Assembly (NCBI RefSeq): GCF_013004595.1
Contig: NZ_JABEMC010000001.1
Location: forward strand, 1 to 64,000
From: Brevibacterium luteolum
Lineage (GTDB): Bacteria; Actinomycetota; Actinomycetes; Actinomycetales; Brevibacteriaceae
Direction of reading: 5' to 3'
DNA length: 64,000 nucleotides
Shown here: in pieces, positions 43,899-64,000 of the stretch
Numbering within the stretch: the first letter of the stretch is position 1
How the letters are laid out: each line of letters begins with the position of its first letter
The notes under the pieces: model-generated
The model's input: only the letters and a program-made list of their open reading frames with translations
Databases searched by the model: none
Told to the model about the DNA's origin: nothing
Made by a program: the position numbers and the translations under genes

Positions 43899-43971
43899 GC
43901 GCCACTAGCTCAACGGATAGAGCATCTGACTACGGATCAGAAGGTTGGGGGTTCGAATCCCTCGTGGCGCG
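43899..43971 (+). tRNA. tRNA-Arg(ACG), prophage attachment site
   Basis: GCGCCAC/GTGGCGC acceptor stem, TCTGA-CTACGGA-TCAGA anticodon arm, GTTCGAATC. Confidence 0.97.
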
Positions 43972-44259
43972 CGAATCTCCACTAGAGCCGCCGTCCGGTC
44001 CATCCGGGCGGCGGTTTTTCAATTCACCGGTTTCGATCCACTCCAGCGGAACCTGCGTCCGCATCGCCCAGAGGATGAGCTCGGCGCGCCGCGGACTGGT
44101 CCGGTCGTTGAGCCAGTTCGAGATCGTGTTGCGCGACACGCCGAGGTGCTGCGCCATCTCCTGAGATGAAAGACCTGCAGCCGACAGCGACTTCGCCAGC
44201 CGGTCGCCGCGCGTGAACTGCAGCCGTGCCATCAGGGTCGATTCGGGGTTCTCAGACAT
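43930..44259 (-). CDS. Phage immunity repressor (XRE HTH); C-terminus overlaps tRNA-Arg in antisense
   Basis: GDRLAKSL..AGLSSQEMAQHLGVSRNTISNWLND..WAMRTQVPLEWIETG; ends RDSNPQPSDP* within the tRNA. Confidence 0.92.
   Translation of the reverse strand: MSENPESTLMARLQFTRGDRLAKSLSAAGLSSQEMAQHLGVSRNTISNWLNDRTSPRRAELILWAMRTQVPLEWIETGELKNRRPDGPDGGSSGDSRATRDSNPQPSDP
43985..44019 (+). terminator. Intrinsic terminator for tRNA-Arg, located in phage DNA
   Basis: GAGCCGCCGTCCGG-tccat-CCGGGCGGCGGTTTTT. Confidence 0.85.
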
Positions 44260-44366
44260 ACCTCTATTATGCCTAAGCTTGTGCAGATTCGCAAGGTAAT
44301 GCAAAAACTCTGCGACTGGTAGTTGCACAAGATTGGGAAGTGGTGCAACCTTGTGACATGCACAAG
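44260..44366. promoter_or_regulatory. Divergent rep/cro promoter-operator region
   Basis: CATAAT-N6-ATG for rep; TTGCAC...CAACCT-N6-ATG for cro; repeated TGCACAAG/CTTGTG half-sites. Confidence 0.7.
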
Positions 44367-44688: not shown

Positions 44689-45273
44689 TCAAGATTCGGG
44701 GAGCAGCTGCTCCATCAGAACGCTTTCGCCGATCGCTACCGTAATAACGTTGCCGTCCACCCCGGTGACAACAGCGGTGTACGGCTCGCCTCTGTCGAGT
44801 CGCGGGGAAAGGCGTCGTGCGAAGCCACGGTTCACGTAACCCCAAGCTGCGGTGCCGACGGGCCCGCAGAGCGCGATCGCCTTGGGGTCGTGCTCGTTGT
44901 TGGGCTCTCTCTTGAGCATGATGATGCTGCCAATCTCGATCTCAGCGGATTGAAGAGCGGCACTGTAGTGCCTGGTTCCTCGGGCACGGAGGTAGAAGAC
45001 GCCGGCGCGAGCGAGGGCGAGGTTGCCCGGCGCGGCTTGCAAACCACTGCTCTTGCTGACGAACCGCAGCTCGTCGCGCCAGATCAACTCGAAGGTCGGA
45101 CGTCCATTGACGATGACGAGCTCACTGTCCGACTCGGCCTTGCTCAGCCAACGCCGCTCGGGCGCCGGTCTGCGCTCCACTTCCTGCGCCTCTCGATCGT
45201 GTGGTGCCTGCGTCTCCGCTTGGCTGCCGCTGAACAGCGTGCGGAAGAACTCTTGAGCTGCTCGAAAAACCAT
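44689..45273 (-). CDS. HIRAN-domain protein, oriented against the early operon
   Basis: RGTRHY...LKREPNNEHDPKAIAL...WGYV; GAAGGAG RBS. Confidence 0.8.
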   Translation of the reverse strand: MVFRAAQEFFRTLFSGSQAETQAPHDREAQEVERRPAPERRWLSKAESDSELVIVNGRPTFELIWRDELRFVSKSSGLQAAPGNLALARAGVFYLRARGTRHYSAALQSAEIEIGSIIMLKREPNNEHDPKAIALCGPVGTAAWGYVNRGFARRLSPRLDRGEPYTAVVTGVDGNVITVAIGESVLMEQLLPES

Positions 45274-45480
45274 AGACCGTCTCCTTCGGCGAGTAGGCGT
45301 CGTCACAGGCGTCAGCTTACCGACGGAGACTGCACGGACATCGCTCCCGTCGAGTCAGCGGTTGAGCGTCCGTGCGGGTCGCCGGAGTCGACACGGGGAT
45401 GCGACTCGGGCGGCTGAAGGGTGGGGCCGGGCGCGGGTGTAAGGGGAAACCCGCGTCCGGTCTCACCACAGGAAGTAGGC

Positions 45481-45517
45481 AAAAAGGAAACGCCCTCGGC
45501 GGTGGAGCGCCGAGGGC
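45481..45517 (-). terminator. Minus-strand intrinsic terminator upstream of the antirepressor gene
   Basis: GCCCTCGGCG-gtggag-CGCCGAGGGC preceded by AAAAAGGAAAC, which gives a U-tract on the minus strand. Confidence 0.7.
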
Positions 45518-45540
45518 CACGGTCCAAGAAAGGACACGAG

Positions 45541-46347
45541 ATGAAGAATCTCAGGATCTTCGACTACCAGGATACACCGGTGCGCACGGTCGAGTTGGAT
45601 GGTGAGCCGTGGTTCGTGCTCGCCGACCTCTGCCGAGTGCTCGGACTGACCCGCGGTGCCGCACAGGTCTCCGAGCGTCTCGACGATGGGGTACGCCAGC
45701 CGTACCCCATCCAGGACAGCATGGGTCGCACGCAGCAGGCGACGATCGTTTCGGAGGCGGGCATGTACGAGGTCGTCATCCGATCGGACAAGCCGGAGGC
45801 GGTTGAGTTCCGCAGGTGGATCACCGCAGAGGTGTTGCCGGCGATCCGTAAGACGGGCCGGTACCAGGCGGATCAGCTGGCAGCTCCCGAGCTGGTCTCC
45901 CGCGCTGACCTTGCCCGCATGGTGCTAGAAGCCGAGGAGGAGAAGAAGGTGTTGGAGGCCGCGATCGAATCGCAGGCCCCGATCGTTGCCTATCACGAAC
46001 GGTTCGTCGCTGAGTCCGATGACATCGTCACCGTCGACAACTTCGCCGGCCAGTACAACACGACCGGGCCACGAGTTCGTGAGCTCCTCCACGAGAAGCG
46101 CATCGCGGTCCGCCGCTGTATTGGCCGCCGTTGGTCGAAGACGAAGCAGCGGATGGTCGACGACTTCGAGTGGCGGCCCCGCGCCGGCGTGCCCTCCGCC
46201 GAGTGGTTCGAGCTGCGCCCGCAGCATAACGCGCCTCGCCTCCACAACGGTCAGGTGCGACAGACCATGTACGTCCGCCAGTTCTACGCCGCTGACCTCG
46301 CAGCACGGATCGGCCTGCAGCAGCCCACCTTGGAGGCGCAGTCATGA
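45541..46347 (+). CDS. BRO-N domain phage antirepressor
   Basis: VRTVELDGEPWFVLADLCRVLGL...VSEAGMYEVVIRSDKPEAVEFRRWITAEVLPAIRKTGRY; AAAGGA RBS. Confidence 0.92.
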   Translation: MKNLRIFDYQDTPVRTVELDGEPWFVLADLCRVLGLTRGAAQVSERLDDGVRQPYPIQDSMGRTQQATIVSEAGMYEVVIRSDKPEAVEFRRWITAEVLPAIRKTGRYQADQLAAPELVSRADLARMVLEAEEEKKVLEAAIESQAPIVAYHERFVAESDDIVTVDNFAGQYNTTGPRVRELLHEKRIAVRRCIGRRWSKTKQRMVDDFEWRPRAGVPSAEWFELRPQHNAPRLHNGQVRQTMYVRQFYAADLAARIGLQQPTLEAQS

Positions 46348-52904: not shown

Positions 52905-54263
52905 ATGGCATGGCTCCGAGGCGGAGACACCGCACCCACACACCCGGTCGCGCTCGCCATTCTGGGACACCCAGACGCAGACGATCGGCTGCTCAATGAG
53001 CTGTTCGGGTTCGTCATGCGCTGCGCGATGGCCTCGACGGCGCACAACATCGAGTACCGGATCACGAGGGGCACAGCCGTGCTGATGGCAGGAGGGCATG
53101 CCCGGGCGGAGAAGCTCCTTGAGTATGCGGTGTGGGCTGGCTACCTCACGGAGGTCGACGGGTCGGCCGGCACGGAGTTCGAGCTCATCCGGGATGACGA
53201 GTTCATTCACCTCATCCCGTGGGATCAGCGCGAGTGGGCGAAACAGCAGAAACGCGACCGCAACAACTGGTCGATCGTCATCCCGGTCCGCCTGCGGGAT
53301 GGCGACGGCTGCCGTTACTGCGGTCGCGTCGTGCAGTGGGAGAACAACAAGGCTGCCCTCGCTGGCACGTATGACCACTTGCACCCTGGCCAGACGGCCA
53401 CGATCGACACCTACGTCGTCGCCTGCCGCGGCTGCAACACCCGGTACGGCGACATGCCCTACAGCGAGAAGAAGGACGATCTGCTGCCACCGCCGATCGA
53501 CCCGTACTTCTCGGAGTTCACGGTCACGTGGATGCAAGGGAACAGGTGGGTCCGCGACAACGATGTCACGATCCCGAAGCCCTCCCGCCGCCGCTTGAGC
53601 CCAGGAGCGCTCGCGATGGCGAAGAAGAAGACTTCGGTCGGCAGCCAGCCGGCCAAGGCAGACGGTCCGCGGGGACACTCGACAGAGCACACCCCCGCGT
53701 CTGCGTCGGATGCTGGTCCGCTGGGTAGCGGCGAGGATAGGCCGTCCTCGTCTGACCCCGCAGCATCCGACACCCCACAGCCCGGTCCGAGGGACACTAC
53801 CGACCGCCAGTCGGAGCAGGACCCCGCGGGCACCACGGCTCGGCCCGAGGGACTATCCGGCATCCAGCCGGAGCGAGACCCCGCGAGCCCTACCAGTTCG
53901 GGTCCGAGGGACACTACTGACCGCCAGTCGGAGCAGGACCCCGCCGAACACCGCCCCAGTGACCGTCCGCAAAGTGCAGATCCTGCACCGCTTGCGAGGC
54001 CGTCACCAGGGGAAACACCGTTTGGAGCAGATAACGAGCAGAAATCGAGCAGAAACTGCCCGTCTCTGCCCAAAACTGCTCCAAACGTCAACCACGTCGT
54101 TGGGCAGACTCGGGACGGGTCGGGACGGGACGGGCCTGGGTTGGGCCAGGGTCGTGCTGGGTCGGGTCGTGTCGAGTCTGGCCGGGCGTGGGCTGGGACT
54201 GGACGGGAGCGCGCCTCGTCCAGCCCTGATGCCAACGTGCCGAGAAAGAGAAGGCGGAGATGA
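52905..54263 (+). CDS. Putative replication-initiator-like protein with HNH domain and repetitive C-terminus
   Basis: MAWLRGGD N-terminus; RLRDGDGCRYCG...DHLHP...VACRGCN HNH; position before VRR-NUC. Confidence 0.7.
   Translation: MAWLRGGDTAPTHPVALAILGHPDADDRLLNELFGFVMRCAMASTAHNIEYRITRGTAVLMAGGHARAEKLLEYAVWAGYLTEVDGSAGTEFELIRDDEFIHLIPWDQREWAKQQKRDRNNWSIVIPVRLRDGDGCRYCGRVVQWENNKAALAGTYDHLHPGQTATIDTYVVACRGCNTRYGDMPYSEKKDDLLPPPIDPYFSEFTVTWMQGNRWVRDNDVTIPKPSRRRLSPGALAMAKKKTSVGSQPAKADGPRGHSTEHTPASASDAGPLGSGEDRPSSSDPAASDTPQPGPRDTTDRQSEQDPAGTTARPEGLSGIQPERDPASPTSSGPRDTTDRQSEQDPAEHRPSDRPQSADPAPLARPSPGETPFGADNEQKSSRNCPSLPKTAPNVNHVVGQTRDGSGRDGPGLGQGRAGSGRVESGRAWAGTGRERASSSPDANVPRKRRRR
53784..53944 (+). 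repeat. 44-bp direct repeat (2 copies, 1 mismatch) plus partial copies
   Basis: GGTCCGAGGGACACTACYGACCGCCAGTCGGAGCAGGACCCCGC at 53784 and 53901; partial copies near 53664 and 53842. Confidence 0.9.
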
Positions 54264-55456: not shown

Positions 55457-55813
55457 ATGGTCATGAAACCGTGCAACGCTCCGGGTTGCCCCACGCTCGT
55501 CGCCGTCGGCACCGGCAGATGCCAAGCCCATCAAGCCGAAGCCGAGCAGCGCCGTGGGTCATCGACGGCCCGAGGCTATGGCCGAGCACACCGCCGCCGC
55601 TTCCGCCCCGCAGTCCTCGCCCGCAACCCGATATGCGTCATCTGCTTCCGCAGGCCCTCGACCGAAGCCGACCACTTCCCGCTCTCACGTGCCGAGCTCA
55701 TCGACCGAGGCCTCGACCCGAACGATCCACAGCACGGCCGCGGCTTATGCAAGCCGTGCCACTCGGCCGAGACGGCCACCCATCAGCCGGGCGGATTCCA
55801 CCGCGAACCCTGA
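55457..55813 (+). CDS. Packaging-associated HNH endonuclease
   Basis: KPCNAPGC, RGYG, CVIC...ADHFP...LCKPCHSAET. Confidence 0.88.
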   Translation: MVMKPCNAPGCPTLVAVGTGRCQAHQAEAEQRRGSSTARGYGRAHRRRFRPAVLARNPICVICFRRPSTEADHFPLSRAELIDRGLDPNDPQHGRGLCKPCHSAETATHQPGGFHREP

Positions 55814-56047
55814 CCCCGGCCCGCCGCATCGACCACGACCCCGCCGCCCGCCGGCACCTCGCGACCACCCCGCACAGGGGTGGGGGTAGACCCCCGAACA
55901 GGGGCAAAGCCCGACCGCCGGTGAGGGGAAAAAAGTCCGCGACGGGTTCAAAAAAATCGGGTATCCGCCCTGGTCAGAACCACAATCGAGGCGCGCAACG
56001 CGCCCCGATTCGCAGTGCCGCAACGGCACGACTCGAAGGGAACGATC

Positions 56048-56542
56048 ATGCCATCAGGAGGTGCACGAAACCGCTCCGGCCCGGCCGCAGACATCAACTC
56101 CTACCGCCAGCGCCGCGACGCCGACGGTTGGGTGAAGCTGCCGCCGCGTGTCGACCGCCGCCGCTCACCGAACTGGCCACTCCGTCCAGCCATGAACGAC
56201 CGCGAACGCGAACTCTGGCGCCGCTTCTGGCGCATGGGCCAGTCCATCGTCTGGGAATCCCAGCACCAGCAGCTCGCGCTCGCCGTCTACGTCCGTCAGT
56301 TCGTGGCCGTGGAGGAGCTGAACTTTGATGTGCCGACGTCGAGGCTGAACTCCCTGCGCATCCAGGCTGATGATCTGGGGATCACGATGCCAGGCCTGAA
56401 CCGGTACCGGTGGCGGTATACGACGACGGAGGAGCTGCAGAAGCAGGCCGACGACGTGGTGTCGAGGAAGGATCGCCGCCGGCGTTCGACGGCTGAGCAG
56501 ATCGCTGAGCTGCTGCCGATGGTGGCGGACGATGAGCGATGA
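56048..56542 (+). CDS. Terminase small subunit
   Basis: MPSGGARNRSGP...LWRRFWR..Q...W...LGITMPGL; directly upstream of terL. Confidence 0.8.
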   Translation: MPSGGARNRSGPAADINSYRQRRDADGWVKLPPRVDRRRSPNWPLRPAMNDRERELWRRFWRMGQSIVWESQHQQLALAVYVRQFVAVEELNFDVPTSRLNSLRIQADDLGITMPGLNRYRWRYTTTEELQKQADDVVSRKDRRRRSTAEQIAELLPMVADDER

Positions 56543-58220
56543 GCGTCCACCGCTGCCGAAGTACCACGTACCGCACCCGACCAAGACGCTCGGCTACTTC
56601 CTATCGGACTGGCTGGCACATCACGCGGTTGTACCCGAGGGTGACCTCGCCGGTGACCCGTTCGAGCCGACGATCGATCACAAGATCTTCCTCGCCAACC
56701 ACTACCGCGTCCGCCCGGACGCCCTGCCCACACAGCGGGCGGCGGCGTTCGTCCACCGCCGTTCAGCGTGGATCGCCGCGCAGAAGGTCGGCAAGAGCCC
56801 CGGGATTGCCGGGCACGCACTGATCGAGTTCGTCGGGCCAGCGCTGTTCGCCGGCTGGGCGACCGGCAGTGAGACTCACCGGTGTGCCGAGTACGGCTGC
56901 CCGTGCGGGTGGGAGTACGACTACATGCCAGGTGAACCGATGGGCCGGCCATGGGCGACGCCGCGCATCCAGCTCGCCGCCGTCGTCGAGGACCAGGTGG
57001 AGAACACCTGGGGTGCACTCGTCCCGATGATCGACGACGGGCCGCTGGCCAATGTCATCCCGAAGACAGGTGAAGAGTTCATCCGCCACCCGAACGGGAA
57101 CCGTGACTCGCTCATCGAGGTCGTGACCTCGAAGGCTGACTCGAAGCTCGGTGCTCGCATCTCGGCGGCGTTCCCGGACGAGACTGGCCTTTACACCGAC
57201 TCGAACAAGATGAAGAAGTTCAACCGCACGCTCATGCGCGGCCTCGGAGGCATGGGCGGGCGGATGGTCGAGTCGTCCAACCCCTACGACCCGGCGGAGA
57301 GTTCCTGGTTGCAGGACACCGTCGAGGGCAACTATCCAGACGTCTACGTGCACTACTTCCCGCCGCCGAAGCACCTTAAGTTCGAGGACAAGGACGACAG
57401 ACGCAAGATCTTCGCGTTCAACTACCAGTTCTCGCCGTGGGTGGACCTCCGCGACATCGAGTCGACCAGCGCCGAGCTGATGAAGCTCAGTCCTGCCGAG
57501 GCAGAGCGCTTCTACGGTAACCGGATCCGTGCCGGCAGTAGTGCGTGGCTCCGCCGTGAAGCGTGGGACCTCCGCGCAGCGGACCCGCCCATCGTGGTAA
57601 GGCCACGCACCCGCATCTGTCTGGGCTTTGACGGCTCGGACACCAACGACTGGACGGGATTCCGCGCCGAGACCCTCGACCAGCACCAGTTCACGCCGCG
57701 CTACCACGACGGGCAGCGCGAAACGATCTGGAACCCCCGCGATTGGGGAGGCTCCGTCCCCCGTCTCGAAGTCGATGCGGCGCTCGCCTGGATCATGAGC
57801 GAGTACGAGGTTGTTCGAGCCTACTTCGACGTCTCCGGTTGGAAGACCGAGATCGCGATGTGGGCGGCGAAGTACGGCGAGAAGAAGATCATCGAGTTCC
57901 GCACCGAGCGTCTGAACATCATGTGGGAGGAGCTCAAGCGGTTCAAGAACGACGTCCTCAATCCTGATTCCGAGCTCACCCATGACGGCTGTGAGACCAC
58001 CGCGGTCCACATCAGGAACGCTGTAGAGCGGGCCATCGGACATCAGGGCAAGTACTACATCGTCAAGGCTTCAGAAGATCAGAAGATCGACCTCGGCATG
58101 TCCTCGGTGCTCGCTCACGCGGCGACCTCGGACGCGATCGCCGCCGGCGCCGCCCGCAAGGCTGATTCGACGATCTACACCGGCACCTCGACCGCTCGCG
58201 CATCCTATGGAAGGTGGTGA
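56532..58220 (+). CDS. Terminase large subunit
   Basis: AAQKVGKS Walker A-like motif, PDETG, LGFDGS..DWT and KID nuclease motifs. Confidence 0.9.
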   Translation: MSDERPPLPKYHVPHPTKTLGYFLSDWLAHHAVVPEGDLAGDPFEPTIDHKIFLANHYRVRPDALPTQRAAAFVHRRSAWIAAQKVGKSPGIAGHALIEFVGPALFAGWATGSETHRCAEYGCPCGWEYDYMPGEPMGRPWATPRIQLAAVVEDQVENTWGALVPMIDDGPLANVIPKTGEEFIRHPNGNRDSLIEVVTSKADSKLGARISAAFPDETGLYTDSNKMKKFNRTLMRGLGGMGGRMVESSNPYDPAESSWLQDTVEGNYPDVYVHYFPPPKHLKFEDKDDRRKIFAFNYQFSPWVDLRDIESTSAELMKLSPAEAERFYGNRIRAGSSAWLRREAWDLRAADPPIVVRPRTRICLGFDGSDTNDWTGFRAETLDQHQFTPRYHDGQRETIWNPRDWGGSVPRLEVDAALAWIMSEYEVVRAYFDVSGWKTEIAMWAAKYGEKKIIEFRTERLNIMWEELKRFKNDVLNPDSELTHDGCETTAVHIRNAVERAIGHQGKYYIVKASEDQKIDLGMSSVLAHAATSDAIAAGAARKADSTIYTGTSTARASYGRW

Positions 58221-58226
58221 CTGCGC

Positions 58227-59681
58227 ATGCCCATGACACTCGAACAGGCGCAGAAGACCACCGCCCGGCTCTCAGACGCGCTGCTCGCTCGCCGCCCTCG
58301 CACTGCTAAGGAGCTGTCCTACTACCGCGGCGACCAGGGCGAGCTGCGCTTCGCCTCCCCGAAATTCTCCGAGAACTTCCGTAAGCAGTTCGAGGGCTTC
58401 TCCGACAACTGGTGTGCCCCGGTCGCTGACGCCTCACCGGAGCGGATGGTGCTGCTGGGCATCCGCCCGTATGGCACCATCCAGGCCGACAAGGAGACCA
58501 ACCGCGCATGGGAAGCCGCCGACGCCGCTGCCGGCATGCAGACAGCCCTGCAGGTGCGCGCCGCAGCACGGCGGGCGTTCGCTCTCATCGCACCGGGCAA
58601 ACGTCCTGATCGGCCTCGGATCACGTTCGAGAATCCTGAGCAGGTCTACGTCGACTCCGACCCGGCGACACGGGAGCGCCGCTCAGCTCTCGTCACCTGG
58701 GCAGACGACAAGAAGGAGTACGCAACCCTCTACCTGCCTGACGAAATCTGGAAGTTCGAGCGGGAAACCTCCGAGGAGCGCTGGCAGCGTCAAGGCCGGC
58801 CTGCCGACCTGTTCCAGGGCTGGGAGCCACGAGCCGGCGACACCCACTTCTGGGGCTCGAACCCGTTCGGCGAGGTGCCAGTCGTGGAGCTGCGCAATCG
58901 TGACCTCCTCGACGACGAGCCGATCTCAGACATCGCCGGGGTCATGGCGATGCAAGACGCGATCAACCTGATCTGGGCCTACCTCATCAACGCCCTCGAT
59001 GCCGCATCGCTGCCACAGCGGATCGTCACCGGTGCCGAGCCGCCGAAGATCCCGATCCTCGACCAGCACGGCCAGCAGATCGGCGCTCGCCCGGTCGAGC
59101 TCGACAAGCTCCTCGGCGAGAAAGTCCTGTTCGTACCGGGGGAGAACGTCGGTGTCGCTGAGTGGTCGCGCTCGCAGCTCGGGCCGTTCTCCGAGGTCAT
59201 CAACCAGGCGATCGAGCACATCGCCGCCCAGACCCGCACGCCACCGCACTATCTGATGACGAAGATGGTCAACACGGCCGCCGAGGCGCTGACCATCTCC
59301 GAGGCCGGCCTGGTCTCCAAGACCCGCCAGTCCGTCATGCACGTCAACTCCGCAGTCCGCGAGATCTACAAGCTCATGGCCATCGCCATGGACCGGCCCT
59401 CCGCCGAGGTCGACGCGCTCGCCGCCGGCCGGCCCATGTGGGCCGATATCCAGTATCGGTCGGAGGCGCAGCGTGCGGATGCGCTGGTGAAGAAGCGCCA
59501 GATGGGCTACCCGTTGCGCTGGATCTTCGAGCAGGATGGTGCCAGCCCGGAGGAGATCGAGCGCATCATGGAGATGATCCGCGAAGAGCGCGCACAGGAT
59601 GCGCTGGCCGCTGACCACTTCGCCACCACCACGGCCATGAATCCAGCGCTCGACGCACCGTCCTCCCAGCTGATGGAGTGA
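58227..59681 (+). CDS. Phage portal protein (SPP1 gp6-like)
   Basis: YYRG.Q, DNWC..V, NPFGEVPVV, QDAIN and TRTPPHYL. Confidence 0.9.
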   Translation: MPMTLEQAQKTTARLSDALLARRPRTAKELSYYRGDQGELRFASPKFSENFRKQFEGFSDNWCAPVADASPERMVLLGIRPYGTIQADKETNRAWEAADAAAGMQTALQVRAAARRAFALIAPGKRPDRPRITFENPEQVYVDSDPATRERRSALVTWADDKKEYATLYLPDEIWKFERETSEERWQRQGRPADLFQGWEPRAGDTHFWGSNPFGEVPVVELRNRDLLDDEPISDIAGVMAMQDAINLIWAYLINALDAASLPQRIVTGAEPPKIPILDQHGQQIGARPVELDKLLGEKVLFVPGENVGVAEWSRSQLGPFSEVINQAIEHIAAQTRTPPHYLMTKMVNTAAEALTISEAGLVSKTRQSVMHVNSAVREIYKLMAIAMDRPSAEVDALAAGRPMWADIQYRSEAQRADALVKKRQMGYPLRWIFEQDGASPEEIERIMEMIREERAQDALAADHFATTTAMNPALDAPSSQLME

Positions 59682-59685
59682 CCTC

Positions 59686-60825
59686 GTGTCCCGCCCGCTG
59701 ACCATCGCCCGGAAGCACCGTCAGGTCACCACCGACCTGACCTCCGACACCTACAAGCGGCTGCTCGCGCAGTGGAACAGCGTCGACGAGAACGCGATCC
59801 TCGACTCCTGGAACGAACAGCTCCCGCACGCGGCAGCCACTGTCGGTCAAGCGCAGACGCTGGCCGCGATCGACTCGACAGCCTACGCCGAGACCGTGCT
59901 CGACGCCCAAGACCTCGACATCGACGGACCGACCATCGAAGCCCGCGCATTCGCCGGCACCATGCAGGCATCCGGCGCTCGCGTCGAGGCAGCGCTCGCC
60001 GGCGTCGCCTACCACTCCCTCGACCGGATCGGTGAGGGTATGCCTCCGGCGCAGGCCCTGACCGCCGGCCGCAGGGACCTGTCCCGCCTCATCCAGACGT
60101 CGATCATCCAGGTCGCCACAGCAGCCACCGGAGCGTTCGCGCTCACTCGCACGAAACCGACGACCGGCTACGTCCGTGTCGTTCATGCCAGCGGCTGTGA
60201 CCGCTGCGCGATCCTCGCCGGCCGCTTCTACCGATGGAACGCCGGCTTCAACCGGCACCCGCACTGCCGGTGCGAGCACCTACCGACCACGCGGCCACGA
60301 AGCGACGAATTCACGACCGACCCCTACGACCACTTCAACAACCTCTCCGAGGACGACCAGGACCGCATCTACACGAAAGCGGGCGCGCAGGCGATCCGAG
60401 ACGGCGCCGACATTTACCAGGTCGTCAATGCCCGCCGTCAAGGAGCTCTCACACCCTCGGGCAGGTTCACCCGCGAGGGCATGGGCAAACGCGGCTACTA
60501 CCGCACCCACACCGGGTACGGACAGGCCGGACGCCGCAGGCTCTCCGTCGACGAGATCTACCGCCGAGCCAACGGCTCACCGGACAGGGCACGCAAACTG
60601 CTGGCCGACTACGGCTACCTCACCGACCAAGGCCAGATAGCCGGTGGCGTCATCAGAGGAAACGTCGAGGGCTACGGCCAGTTCGGCCGCGGCGGCACCC
60701 GCGTCGGTGCCACAGCCGAAGTGCTCCGCGCGCGCCGCACCGGCGTCCGCAACCCGAACTCGCAGTACACCATGACCGCTGCTGAGCTGCGCGAGCACCG
60801 CCGCAAGATCTACGCAGCAGCCTGA
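59686..60825 (+). CDS. Minor capsid / MuF-like head protein
   Basis: YVRV...CDRCAILAGR...HPHCRC; follows the portal gene. Confidence 0.8.
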   Translation: MSRPLTIARKHRQVTTDLTSDTYKRLLAQWNSVDENAILDSWNEQLPHAAATVGQAQTLAAIDSTAYAETVLDAQDLDIDGPTIEARAFAGTMQASGARVEAALAGVAYHSLDRIGEGMPPAQALTAGRRDLSRLIQTSIIQVATAATGAFALTRTKPTTGYVRVVHASGCDRCAILAGRFYRWNAGFNRHPHCRCEHLPTTRPRSDEFTTDPYDHFNNLSEDDQDRIYTKAGAQAIRDGADIYQVVNARRQGALTPSGRFTREGMGKRGYYRTHTGYGQAGRRRLSVDEIYRRANGSPDRARKLLADYGYLTDQGQIAGGVIRGNVEGYGQFGRGGTRVGATAEVLRARRTGVRNPNSQYTMTAAELREHRRKIYAAA

Positions 60826-60897
60826 CCCCACCCACAGTTCCAGCTCGCCGTGGCAATCGCGGCGGGCCCTCACCCATGCGCAACGCAGGAGGAAACC

Positions 60898-61575
60898 ATG
60901 GCAGACACCACCGTGACCGTCACCGAGGACACTGACGAGCAGCAGCACGGCCCAGACGAGTCCCAGCAGCCAGACGATCAGCACGGCCCCGCGGGCGACG
61001 AGCAGAACCACGACGACAGCGAATCCGGCGGTGACGACGACGCTGACCCGGAGGGCGCCGACCAGCTCGGCGACCCCGGCAAGAAGGCGCTCGCCTCGAT
61101 GAAGGCCGAACGAAACGCCGCGAAGAAGCAGGCCAAGGAGCTGCAGAAGCAGCTCGATCAGATCCGCGCCGAGCAGGAACGGGCGAACAAGTCACCAGAC
61201 GAGCAGGCGATCGACGCCGCGAAGGCCGAGGCCCGGGCAGAAGCGCTCGAAAAGGCCAACGCCCGCATCCTGCGCTCCGAGCTCAAGGCCGCCGCCACCG
61301 GCAAGCTGCGCGACCCCTCCGACGCGCTGGCCTTCCTCGATCTGTCCGAGTTCGAGGTCGACGACGACGGCAATGTCGACGCCGACGAGCTCGCTGACGC
61401 CCTGGATGACCTCCTGACCCGAAAACCACACCTCGCCGCGCAAGGCGGCACTGCGAGCTTCGACTCTGCACGGGGCAAGCCCAAGCCCAGGAAGAAGCTC
61501 TCGAAAGCCGACCTCGAAAAGATGACGCCCGCGGAAGTGACGAAGGCGTATCGCGAAGGTCGCGTGGACACCTGA
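60898..61575 (+). CDS. Capsid scaffolding protein
   Basis: Acidic N-terminus, LGDPGKKAL..MK coiled coil, KPHLAA; precedes the capsid gene. Confidence 0.85.
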   Translation: MADTTVTVTEDTDEQQHGPDESQQPDDQHGPAGDEQNHDDSESGGDDDADPEGADQLGDPGKKALASMKAERNAAKKQAKELQKQLDQIRAEQERANKSPDEQAIDAAKAEARAEALEKANARILRSELKAAATGKLRDPSDALAFLDLSEFEVDDDGNVDADELADALDDLLTRKPHLAAQGGTASFDSARGKPKPRKKLSKADLEKMTPAEVTKAYREGRVDT

Positions 61576-61620
61576 CACCGACCCTGACCGGGGCCGGTCT
61601 ACATCACGAAAGGAAACATC

Positions 61621-62439
61621 ATGTCCATCGAGAAGTTCATTCCGAAGCTGTGGGCATCAGCGATGCTCACCGACTTCCGCAACCAGGCGGTCTGGGCTGG
61701 CCTCACGAACCGGGAGTACGAACGCGAGTTCACCTCCGGCGACCAGATCACGATCAACACCCCAGTGCCGATCGCGATCAAGGACTACAAGGCCAACTCG
61801 CGGACCACCGAGCCCGACGCAATCTCGACCACCGCGATCGAACTGGTCATCGACCAGGAGAAGAACTTCGACTTCTACGTCGACGACATCGACCGCGCAC
61901 AGGCTGCCGGCGACCTCAACGTGTTCTCGCAGTCCGCCGCCGAGGGCCTCGTCGAGGACGCCGACAAGCACCTGGCCACCATGGCCGCAACGAACGCCAC
62001 CCCGGTCACCCCGGGCGCACCTGCCACCGACGCAAAGTCGGCCTGGAACGTCGTCCGAGACCTGCGCAAGGCCCTCGACAAGGCCGCCGTGCCGAAGCAG
62101 GGCCGAGTGTTCGTCGCCAACGCCGAGTTCTCCTCCCTGTTCTTCGAACACGACTCGAAGATCACCAACGCCGACCAGCTCGGCGACACCCAGGGACTGC
62201 GCGAGGCATCCATGGGACGCATCCTCGGCTTCGACGGCTACGAGTCCGAGAACGGCCCAACGGTAGACAAGCCGCAGGTCATCGCCTTCCACCGCTCCGC
62301 GCTCGCCTTCGTCTCGCAGATCCAGAAGACCGAGGCTATGCGGGCGGAGAAGAAGTTCGCTGACCGTCTGCGCGGACTGCACGTGTACGGCTCGAAGGTC
62401 GTCCGCCCGAAGGCCATCGTCTCCTACACGGCAGAGTGA
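61621..62439 (+). CDS. Major capsid protein
   Basis: FIPKLWA...NREYE...VIDQEK.FDF.VDDID...RGLHVYGSKVVRP. Confidence 0.9.
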   Translation: MSIEKFIPKLWASAMLTDFRNQAVWAGLTNREYEREFTSGDQITINTPVPIAIKDYKANSRTTEPDAISTTAIELVIDQEKNFDFYVDDIDRAQAAGDLNVFSQSAAEGLVEDADKHLATMAATNATPVTPGAPATDAKSAWNVVRDLRKALDKAAVPKQGRVFVANAEFSSLFFEHDSKITNADQLGDTQGLREASMGRILGFDGYESENGPTVDKPQVIAFHRSALAFVSQIQKTEAMRAEKKFADRLRGLHVYGSKVVRPKAIVSYTAE

Positions 62440-62453
62440 GGACGGGCAGAACC

Positions 62454-62903
62454 ATGACCTACGTCAAGGGACCCAACGGGACCGTCTTTGACGTGGCTGA
62501 GCACGTGGCCTCCGGCCTCATCAACGGAGGCCACGTGAAGCCAGCCACGAAGGACGAGTTCCTGAACGCGAATCCCGGCGCCGAGCCCGCCAAAGACGGT
62601 CACCCGACCGACGCCTCGAAGGCTGTCCCGCCGCTGGGCCAGGTCGCCGGCGATCTGCCAAGCGACACGATCGACATCTGGCCACCGGACAAGCGGCGCA
62701 CTGCCGCAGACCTGGATGCAGAGCGAGAAGCCGACACCGAGACCGACACCGGCGAAACCGACACCGGTGACACCGAGACGCCGGCCGGCAACGCCTCAAA
62801 GGACACCTGGCGCGAGCACGCGCTCACGCTCGGGTTCGCCGAGGAGCAGCTGGACGGTCTCGGCCGAGACGACATCAAGAAGCTCGTCTCCGGAGACGAC
62901 TGA
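62454..62903 (+). CDS. Phage protein with acidic DTET repeats and a small C-terminal helical domain
   Basis: PAGNASKDTW..HA...LGRDDI; follows the capsid gene. Confidence 0.7.
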   Translation: MTYVKGPNGTVFDVAEHVASGLINGGHVKPATKDEFLNANPGAEPAKDGHPTDASKAVPPLGQVAGDLPSDTIDIWPPDKRRTAADLDAEREADTETDTGETDTGDTETPAGNASKDTWREHALTLGFAEEQLDGLGRDDIKKLVSGDD

Positions 62904-62918
62904 GAGAGGTGGCATCCG

Positions 62919-63512
62919 ATGCTCATCACGATCGACGACGTGAAGGCCTGGGGCAACGACATCGATGACGACGAGCTCACGATGATCGAAACGCTCATCG
63001 CCGCCGCATCGGATGCCATCACCTCAGCTGCCGGCTGCCCAATCGCCTACCGAGAGTCCACCGTCCGTGTCATAGGCCTACCCGACCGGCTCCTGGAGCT
63101 GCCCGGCCTGCCGATCGACACCGTCCACGAAGTCCACGTCAACGACACCCTGCTCGACGCCCGCGCCTACGCGGTCGTCTCACAGGGCATCTACCGTAAC
63201 GACGGCTGGTCATGCGGCCACCACCTGCCAGAAATCCACGTCCGCTACTCCCATGGCCTCAAACAAGTCCCAGCAGACGTCAAGGCGCTCGCCGTCGGCA
63301 TGGTGACGGCTGGCCTGCATGAGGTGCGTGAGGGGTCATGGTCGATCCGCAACGGCGGCCTGTCGTCGGTGAGCATTGACGACTACCGGGAGTCCTACGC
63401 CACGACTGGTGAGTCCACGGAGATGGTCACACCGATGAGCCTGCCGTCCCGAACTCGTGCCTGGCTGCGTGCCCGGTTCGGAGGCGGGGCGACGGTCGTG
63501 GGGATGCTGTGA
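62919..63512 (+). CDS. Head-to-tail adaptor
   Basis: IAAASDAI..A.G..I, YSHG...VPADV and SIDDY.ESY. Confidence 0.8.
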   Translation: MLITIDDVKAWGNDIDDDELTMIETLIAAASDAITSAAGCPIAYRESTVRVIGLPDRLLELPGLPIDTVHEVHVNDTLLDARAYAVVSQGIYRNDGWSCGHHLPEIHVRYSHGLKQVPADVKALAVGMVTAGLHEVREGSWSIRNGGLSSVSIDDYRESYATTGESTEMVTPMSLPSRTRAWLRARFGGGATVVGML

Positions 63513-63934
63513 GCGCCCGTCGTGCGGCTGCAGCACTTATGCGCGGCCGGCGCGCTGCTAAGGCGCTGATGGTCGACCGCTGCACCATCTCCCGCGTCAC
63601 CGGTGAGACCACCGACCGCACCACTGGCAAGGTCGTGCCGCTCACCGAGCAGATCTACCCGAACGAGGACTACCCGGTGGGCTGCTGCAAGCTCACCTCC
63701 TACGAGGGCTACGAGGCCGAGCAGGAGTCTGCTGGCGCAGATATGACCGAGCAGCGCATGTCCATCCACCTGCCGGTCGGATCGGTGCGCGTCAACGTCG
63801 GCGACATCGTCGAGATCACCTACGCCGACCTCGATCCGCTGCTCGTCGGCCGCACGTACCGCATCAGCCAGGAAGCGCCGTTCCGCACGTACAGCACCGC
63901 CTACCGCATCTTCGTCGACTACATCGCTGATTGA
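63509..63934 (+). CDS. Head-tail connector/stopper (DUF6093-like)
   Basis: GRRAA.ALM.DRCTI.R...IHLPV...VGDIVEI. Confidence 0.75.
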   Translation: MSARRAAAALMRGRRAAKALMVDRCTISRVTGETTDRTTGKVVPLTEQIYPNEDYPVGCCKLTSYEGYEAEQESAGADMTEQRMSIHLPVGSVRVNVGDIVEITYADLDPLLVGRTYRISQEAPFRTYSTAYRIFVDYIAD

Positions 63935-63952
63935 GAGAAGAGGGGACGCCTC

Positions 63953-64000
63953 ATGGGTCTGCGCATCGACACCAGTGAAGTGGATCGCCTCGCCAGCGAC
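63953..64000 (+). CDS. Next virion gene, partial
   Basis: GAGGGG RBS; MGLRIDTSEVDRLASD runs off the window edge. Confidence 0.65.
   Translation, partial: MGLRIDTSEVDRLASD

Follow-up and report, generated by a model that had tools for sequence, protein, structure and literature searches.

The three-gene switch of integration-dependent immunity, built on adjacent repressor and integrase genes, has been defined and placed in 'prophages of various bacteria' by an account that leaves the route of excision open in its treatment of the switch (PMC3694055). In mycobacteriophage BPs (Cluster G, int(32)-rep(33)-cro(34)), a host base at the tRNA-Arg attL creates the repressor stop codon (PMC9262239), and both repressor forms bind DNA alike (PMC4557955). 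Of 27 Gordonia phages in which attP could be identified, about half are reported to share the design; the same study assigns Wizard, Twister6 and UmaThurman to tRNA-Arg and describes one more ORF, of unknown function, separating int from rep in GMA5 (PMC5559632). For the Bifidobacterium prophages Bb423phi2 and 689b-1 an in-silico case has been made (PMC6109161).

The locus analysed here comes from Brevibacterium luteolum. The window, the whole stretch of DNA under study, corresponds to positions 1-64000 of C1, a contig from an assembly of 2.97 Mb, and positions labelled C1 continue the window's numbering. A first-pass annotation had read this locus, from its letters alone, as a BPs/Brujita-type switch in an apparently non-mycobacterial host. 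The host is indeed non-mycobacterial: among the 15 of 43 members listed for the 90%-identity cluster of the PEP carboxykinase next to the tRNA, all six that carry a name belong to Brevibacterium. The reading is supported, at the level of sequence, by a distal copy of the att core, a 130-residue phage form of the repressor and an integrase at the far end of the prophage. The novelty ascribed to it was overrated: the Gordonia (PMC5559632) and Bifidobacterium (PMC6109161) cases and the host-made stop of BPs (PMC9262239) are already in print. Since the mechanism is known and has been tested in mycobacteriophages, the present case would add breadth, not principle, by extending integration-dependent immunity to Brevibacterium. 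No published Brevibacterium switch was found by title and start of abstract, and the prophage list of Broussard et al. (2013) could already name the genus. What is new is small, namely the host genus, an orphan gene that we call orfX, and, overlapping the start of the integrase gene, an operator-like site, a hint that the repressor might control an integrase promoter.

Brujita, whose int(33)-rep(34)-gp35 cassette belongs to Cluster I and is considered here together with Clusters P and N, has an integrase 43% identical to the one described here over 266 columns (residues 4-260 of the latter align with Brujita Int). Its gp35 is 37% identical to our Cro-like protein over 35 aa, and its repressor is weakly similar (25%, E 0.03). 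The two loci share the order cro/excise - rep - int with an antirepressor after cro, a repressor that reads the tRNA antisense in the 'SNP' frame, and Ala-Ala at the ends of both repressor and integrase. They differ in host and in the sequence of the att core; here, moreover, orfX lies between repressor tail and int, a HIRAN-domain gene lies between cro and the antirepressor gene, and the integrase is without Brujita's C-terminal extension of ~30 residues.

BPs likewise carries attP inside its repressor gene, the site matching the 3' half of a tRNA-Arg (35 bp in BPs, 40 here), with a stop created by host bases at the junction. Its gp33 is 29% identical to our repressor over 121 aa (E 3e-11, in a comparison of 10 proteins) and its Int 31% identical to our integrase. 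However, the BPs repressor uses another frame (...FEPPTF, with a TGA made from a Cys codon), whereas here the whole TAG comes from the anticodon loop; the BPs core starts 5 bp further into the tRNA; integration costs the BPs repressor 33 residues and this one 21; and the operator-like sequence found here differs from the 12-bp palindrome of BPs. The top-ranked phage matches of the repressor are those of Wizard-like Gordonia phages (37% identity), which also have a non-mycobacterial host and a tRNA-Arg attB. The extra ORF of GMA5 resembles orfX in position, in a different genus; by contrast, the three-gene model has rep and int adjacent and cotranscribed, with no directionality factor, whereas orfX separates the two here. 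The Bifidobacterium prophages are similar in having int at one end, the repressor at the other and a reconstructed form with an ssrA-like tail, but they are small, use tRNA-Met and have an 18-residue tail, against 40 kb and tRNA-Arg here.

The prophage and its attachment sites at tRNA-Arg(ACG)

The tRNA at the repressor-side junction is the sole ACG tRNA-Arg called in the assembly (Table 1). Exactly one further copy of the 40-bp core exists in the 2.97-Mb genome, which gives a prophage of 40,474 bp. This duplication is not a matter of chance, because the second copy is single and exact (E 1e-15) and the integrase start lies 404 bp away. Compared with a relative (G057) in which a different, 16-kb element occupies this site, the host sequence on the outer side of the two cores shows 92-94% identity along ~1.5 kb. 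Among 21 short loci from other species, none showed tRNA-Arg syntenic with the host gene that lies past attR, and the prophage boundary therefore rests on the G057 flanks. The assembly holds two core copies only, and the attP junction of this prophage was not seen in it. The reconstructed attP has an inverted repeat on either side of the core's first 8 bp, with agreement in 9 of 10 bp, and the host side matches poorly; we infer that strand exchange would take place within these 8 bp.

Table 1. Features of the switch locus and of the far end of the prophage (positions without prefix are those of the window).
Feature	Position	Strand	Basis
Host tRNA-Arg(ACG), intact, rebuilt at the repressor-side junction of the prophage	43899..43972	+	ARAGORN
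40-bp att common core	43933..43972	+	exact duplicate elsewhere on contig
Host-derived TAG stop of the prophage-form repressor	43930..43932	-	complement of CTA in anticodon loop, immediately outside core
Immunity repressor, XRE family, prophage form, 109 aa (130 aa in reconstructed phage form)	43930..44259	-	ORF, domain matches, BPs gp33 alignment
GC-rich hairpin and T-run, phage-side, behind tRNA, inside repressor ORF	43988..44019	+	by eye in sequence
Promoter-like site for repressor	44266..44294	-	promoter search: 2 sites in region vs 0.2 expected from shuffles
Operator-like motifs in rep-cro gap, predicted	44278..44366	.	repeated motif
Cro-like/excisionase-like HTH_17 protein, 72 aa	44358..44576	+	Pfam, PHROGs; divergent from repressor
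Bro-N/KilAC antirepressor	45421..46347	+	Pfam, PHROGs
Packaging/head genes: HNH endonuclease, terminase, portal, protease, scaffold, major head protein, adaptor	55457..64000	+	family matches
Tyrosine integrase, 262 aa, ends -LAA	C1:84003-83215	-	PF00589 7e-24
Two operator-like half sites, predicted	C1:84001-84020		matrix search
orfX, orphan gene, 91 aa, Shine-Dalgarno-like sequence	C1:84323-84048	-	between repressor tail and int, same strand
21-codon repressor tail ending -SAA, plus TGA	C1:84406-84341 (TGA 84343-84341)	-	attP reconstruction
Second core copy (attR)	C1:84407-84446		exact 40-bp match, E 1e-15

The repressor ORF, of the XRE/CI type, starts at an ATG at 44259 and its translation ends in ...SNPQPSDP*. 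Its helix-turn-helix is matched by PF07022 (2e-10) and PF01381 (7e-10) in Pfam, and residues 16-108 by the PHROGs transcriptional repressor family phrog_2328 (1e-27). The last 13 of its codons are encoded by the 40-bp core, which places attP inside the ORF near its 3' end, and the stop follows from CTA, the first three anticodon-loop bases of the tRNA, just beyond the duplicated core. ORF translation and tRNA call thus confirm the first-pass description of a repressor that reads antisense through the 3' half of the tRNA and stops at a TAG supplied by the anticodon loop. Its remark that no integrase lies beside the tRNA also holds, the neighbours being host PEP carboxykinase on the left and the Cro-like, HIRAN and antirepressor genes on the right; and the distal duplicate of the tRNA 3' segment that it predicted exists, exact over 40 bp. 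The -10 of the promoter-like site ends 6 nt before the ATG, so that the repressor transcript is likely leaderless, and this position in turn supports 44259 as the start.

The phage-side hairpin behind the tRNA, which was not called by a terminator scan, likely replaces the host tRNA terminator. Its sequence resembles a host hairpin behind attR (C1:84453-84483), and its other strand codes for repressor residues.

On the opposite strand, the Cro-like gene starts 98 bp from the repressor ATG, and a 17-bp palindrome at 44350-44366, identical in the related element of genome G059, spans its start codon. A 205-aa HIRAN-domain gene (44689-45306, minus strand; PF08797, 6e-11) stands between cro and the antirepressor gene, against the direction of the early operon. 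The packaging and head genes run to the end of the window, and those for tail, tape measure and endolysin lie past it. Phage-family matches were obtained for 13 of 15 prophage-interior proteins tested, including terminase, portal, major head protein, tape measure and endolysin. A 452-aa protein (52905-54263, plus strand) has an HNH-like part (phrog_15463); its C-terminal half is of low complexity and contains a directly duplicated stretch of ~15 residues.

Phage-form repressor, integrase and orfX

In the reconstructed attP the host stop is lost and the repressor is extended by 21 residues, to a C-terminus in -SAA (-PSAA). The longer phage form that the first-pass annotation had predicted is therefore there (130 vs 109 aa, with an Ala-Ala end), and it ends at a different stop codon, TGA, from that of the integrated gene. 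The tyrosine integrase predicted at the far end was also found. The expectation of an in-frame extension with a degron-like tail and then int was borne out for the extension and for the presence of int, but not for their immediate succession, as orfX, which had not been foreseen, intervenes.

An Ala-Ala C-terminus occurs in 20 of 1803 host ORFs, and -AA, -VA or -IA in 35 of them, the background being filtered long ORFs and not curated genes. Nine of ten annotated phage repressors checked end in -AA or -VA and the tenth in -PA; that of BPs ends in -KAS. The host tmRNA tag ends in -LAA, two ClpP genes are present in the host genome, and the phage-form repressor tail and the integrase both end in Ala-Ala. 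On this comparison of termini, the 21-residue tail is likely an ssrA-like destruction tag.

The integrase frame is open, with the catalytic motifs in place, and all three integrase variants compared keep -LAA. Domain searches returned the catalytic domain and a weak SAM-like domain only, with no arm-binding N-terminal domain. The protein thus appears to be of the core-only type, and the att sites, judging from the inverted repeat, would be core-type as well.

In nine cluster members, which are 93-99% identical, orfX is likewise an open frame. Neither Pfam nor PHROGs yielded a family for it. A homolog search gave one homolog among seven candidates, which was uninformative, and a comparison with 1.84 billion representatives gave four matches, one of them its own cluster and the other three short repeats within proteins of ~1000 aa. 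In the ESM Atlas the best score, 0.81 to DUF6158, was inside the range of shuffled proteins. The small ORF upstream of the integrase in G065 has no similarity to it, and orfX was not found in any of the 68 other genomes of the genus, including those with the five related switches described below. Its AlphaFold model (pLDDT 77) has three helices, the prediction being all-helical, and no match at E<=0.001 in BFVD or PDB; an excisionase-type fold was considered and is not supported by these searches and this model.

Related elements in Brevibacterium and elsewhere

A repressor profile matched seven places in 6 of 69 genomes of the genus: this locus, a long non-phage protein without a tRNA (in G020), which was dropped, and five elements. 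In these five, distributed over four genomes, the repressor ends antisense in a tRNA, Arg-ACG in three cases and Thr-CGT in two, a placement that is partly built in because the search profile contained the tRNA-antisense stretch; tails and integrases are independent of it. When attP was reconstructed, all five tails ended in -VA, -AA, -AA, -AA or -IA, and the integrase, ending in -LAA, -TAA or -LAS, followed directly after the tail in each case. Two of the five tails are identical, which leaves four independent ones.

The G059 repressor is 73% identical to the one described here. The G059 assembly (L082 in G059:C32, L075 and L080) has three core copies. Two are attL and attR; at the third, located at the end of a separate contig, the integrase side is connected to the repressor side, with flanking bases matching at 127/127 and 92/92 positions, and this joined junction encodes a 136-aa form of the repressor ending in -LVA. 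It is thus an attP junction in real data, which could derive from an excised circle or from a tandem prophage. The G059 element is a mosaic, with a repressor in the frame of this element, a core start of the BPs type and a more distant integrase (29% identical).

Small switch elements of ~15-17 kb were observed at tRNA-Thr(CGT) and tRNA-Arg(ACG) (L066/L052 in G057:C24, L064/L050 in G081:C222 and L074/L079 in G057:C67), G057 holding two of them. A lysin-like gene, judged by eye, lies near int in two small elements, an arrangement that recalls the small Gordonia phages of Cluster CW. At another locus (L059, G081:C111) a related integrase, 40% identical, ends directly by tRNA-Arg(TCT) and is without an Ala-Ala end; in Arthrobacter phage Ryan, tRNA-Arg(TCT) likewise follows the integrase.

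Beyond the genus, the repressor matched 16 viral contigs, of which one is this prophage, one (L015) is unrelated and 14 are others. In 11 of these 14 the repressor ends antisense in tRNA-Arg(ACG) sequence, with all three frames represented, in a set that is biased because one of the six search patterns was a tRNA-derived peptide. Two of the contigs (L010 and L011) are attP forms, with tails ending in -VA and -AA. In a further one (L006:4001-4341), a TGA inside its own att copy means that there is no tail, and no tRNA was called in the 8-kb locus; this is possibly a degenerate or integration-independent derivative, and it indicates that tRNA overlap does not guarantee a switch. Among named phages, 132 records matched the repressor and 548 the integrase, mostly from Mycobacterium and Gordonia phages. 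A single-protein scan of genome contigs returned, on the repressor side, seven loci, six of them antisense in tRNA-Arg(ACG) in other actinobacterial genera and one unrelated. The 3' half of tRNA-Arg(ACG) thus provides the repressor C-terminus of different elements in all three antisense frames (L003-L018, L083-L088), each with its own stop: the TAG of the anticodon loop, a TGA in the anticodon stem, or a TAG closer to the 5' end of the tRNA.

The proposed switch and the control of the integrase gene

The locus has two att cores, repressor forms of 109 and 130 aa, a host-made stop, a rebuilt tRNA and an integrase ending in -LAA. We consider it very probable, from this arrangement, that the prophage uses integration-dependent immunity, with attP inside the repressor gene and with an integration event that removes a likely tag and would leave stable repressor only in the lysogen. 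By analogy with BPs, host Clp protease would, by way of their ssrA-like ends, destroy both the integrase and the long repressor, and active repressor would be made only where enough integrase survives to recombine attP with tRNA-Arg. Integration would then remove the tag, and the stabilised repressor, by binding in the rep-cro gap, would silence the lytic operon of cro and antirepressor. Excision, conversely, would bring back the tagged repressor, committing the phage to lysis.

The layout might instead be inherited with the tail of no consequence, both repressor forms being active and attP merely lying in a dispensable C-terminal stretch. The -PSAA end, which is not the textbook -LAA, agrees with that, as does the relative that has no tail (L006), and the equal DNA binding of the two BPs forms (PMC4557955) leaves only stability to separate them. 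However, tails that vary in length and sequence, and that occur in two frames and at two different tRNAs, have Ala as their last residue, preceded by Ala, Val or Ile, here and in all five relatives; such ends are found in 35 of the 1803 host ORFs, and -AA or -VA in nine of the ten annotated phage repressors, so that we regard an irrelevant tail as quite unlikely. That the prophage is a decaying remnant, whose switch once worked until insertion of orfX uncoupled int from the repressor promoter and excision was lost, seems to us highly improbable. Such decay would fit the fact that orfX was not found in the 68 other genomes and the lack of an attP junction in this assembly, but the integrase frame is open with its catalytic motifs, the cores are identical over 40 bp, orfX is open in nine cluster members, -LAA is kept in 3/3 integrase variants, and the structural genes are intact where tested.

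A further possibility is compatible with integration-dependent immunity and differs from it in the expression of int in the lysogen: the switch would be real but not a minimal three-gene one, int having its own leaderless promoter under the repressor or Cro, with orfX or the antirepressor acting on directionality or induction. With an operator matrix built from rep-cro gaps alone, those of G059 and of this element, the best non-training site in 40.5 kb lies at C1:84011 and scores 14.6 bits, against 14.7-15.6 for the three training sites of this element and 11.1 for the next one. It is situated 8-17 nt before the start codon of int, which itself carries a second half site, and only three such half-site pairs exist in 2.97 Mb. 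In six of six elements of the genus with a paired repressor, a -10-like hexamer lies 6-7 nt ahead of the int ATG (background 2.1% per ATG), but this pattern was defined post hoc, the hexamer overlaps in four of these elements the repressor stop codon, which supplies part of it, and here hexamer and operator-like site are the same bases. The hexamer is present at any candidate start in only 3 of 12 named phages, the other five elements of the genus share no unusual word between rep-cro gap and int start (fractions 0.16-1.0), and orfX is without an informative homolog or fold match. On balance we think such a fuller circuit rather unlikely. The corresponding proposal for this prophage, that the lysogen holds int off through a repressor/Cro operator over a leaderless int promoter, that induction turns it on and that orfX is a fourth, unrelated component, is likewise offered tentatively, as something we would not expect to prove correct.

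Were it true, the locus would stand midway between the three-gene switch and circuits of the lambda type, a natural intermediate such as Broussard and Hatfull proposed (PMC3694055, Fig. 1B), and it would address a question raised in the same paper, how prophages manage to excise when the repressor promoter is 40 kb away from int. With an operator-like site at the int start, control of excision becomes testable in the lysogen. A leaderless int promoter was also considered for the family as a whole and rejected, with the hexamer in 3/12 named phages, 0/3 viral contigs and 0/2 integrases of the genus without a paired repressor. The core-only integrase and the repressor, as a marker, are candidate genetic tools for Brevibacterium.

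Two genes lie 3' of int on the same strand (C1:81802-83165, minus strand; L002:5802-7165). One encodes 174 aa with a signal-peptide-like N-terminus and the other 285 aa with hydrophobic N-terminal segments; both have weak family matches only, and their position beside int would fit genes for exclusion or defence expressed in the lysogen.
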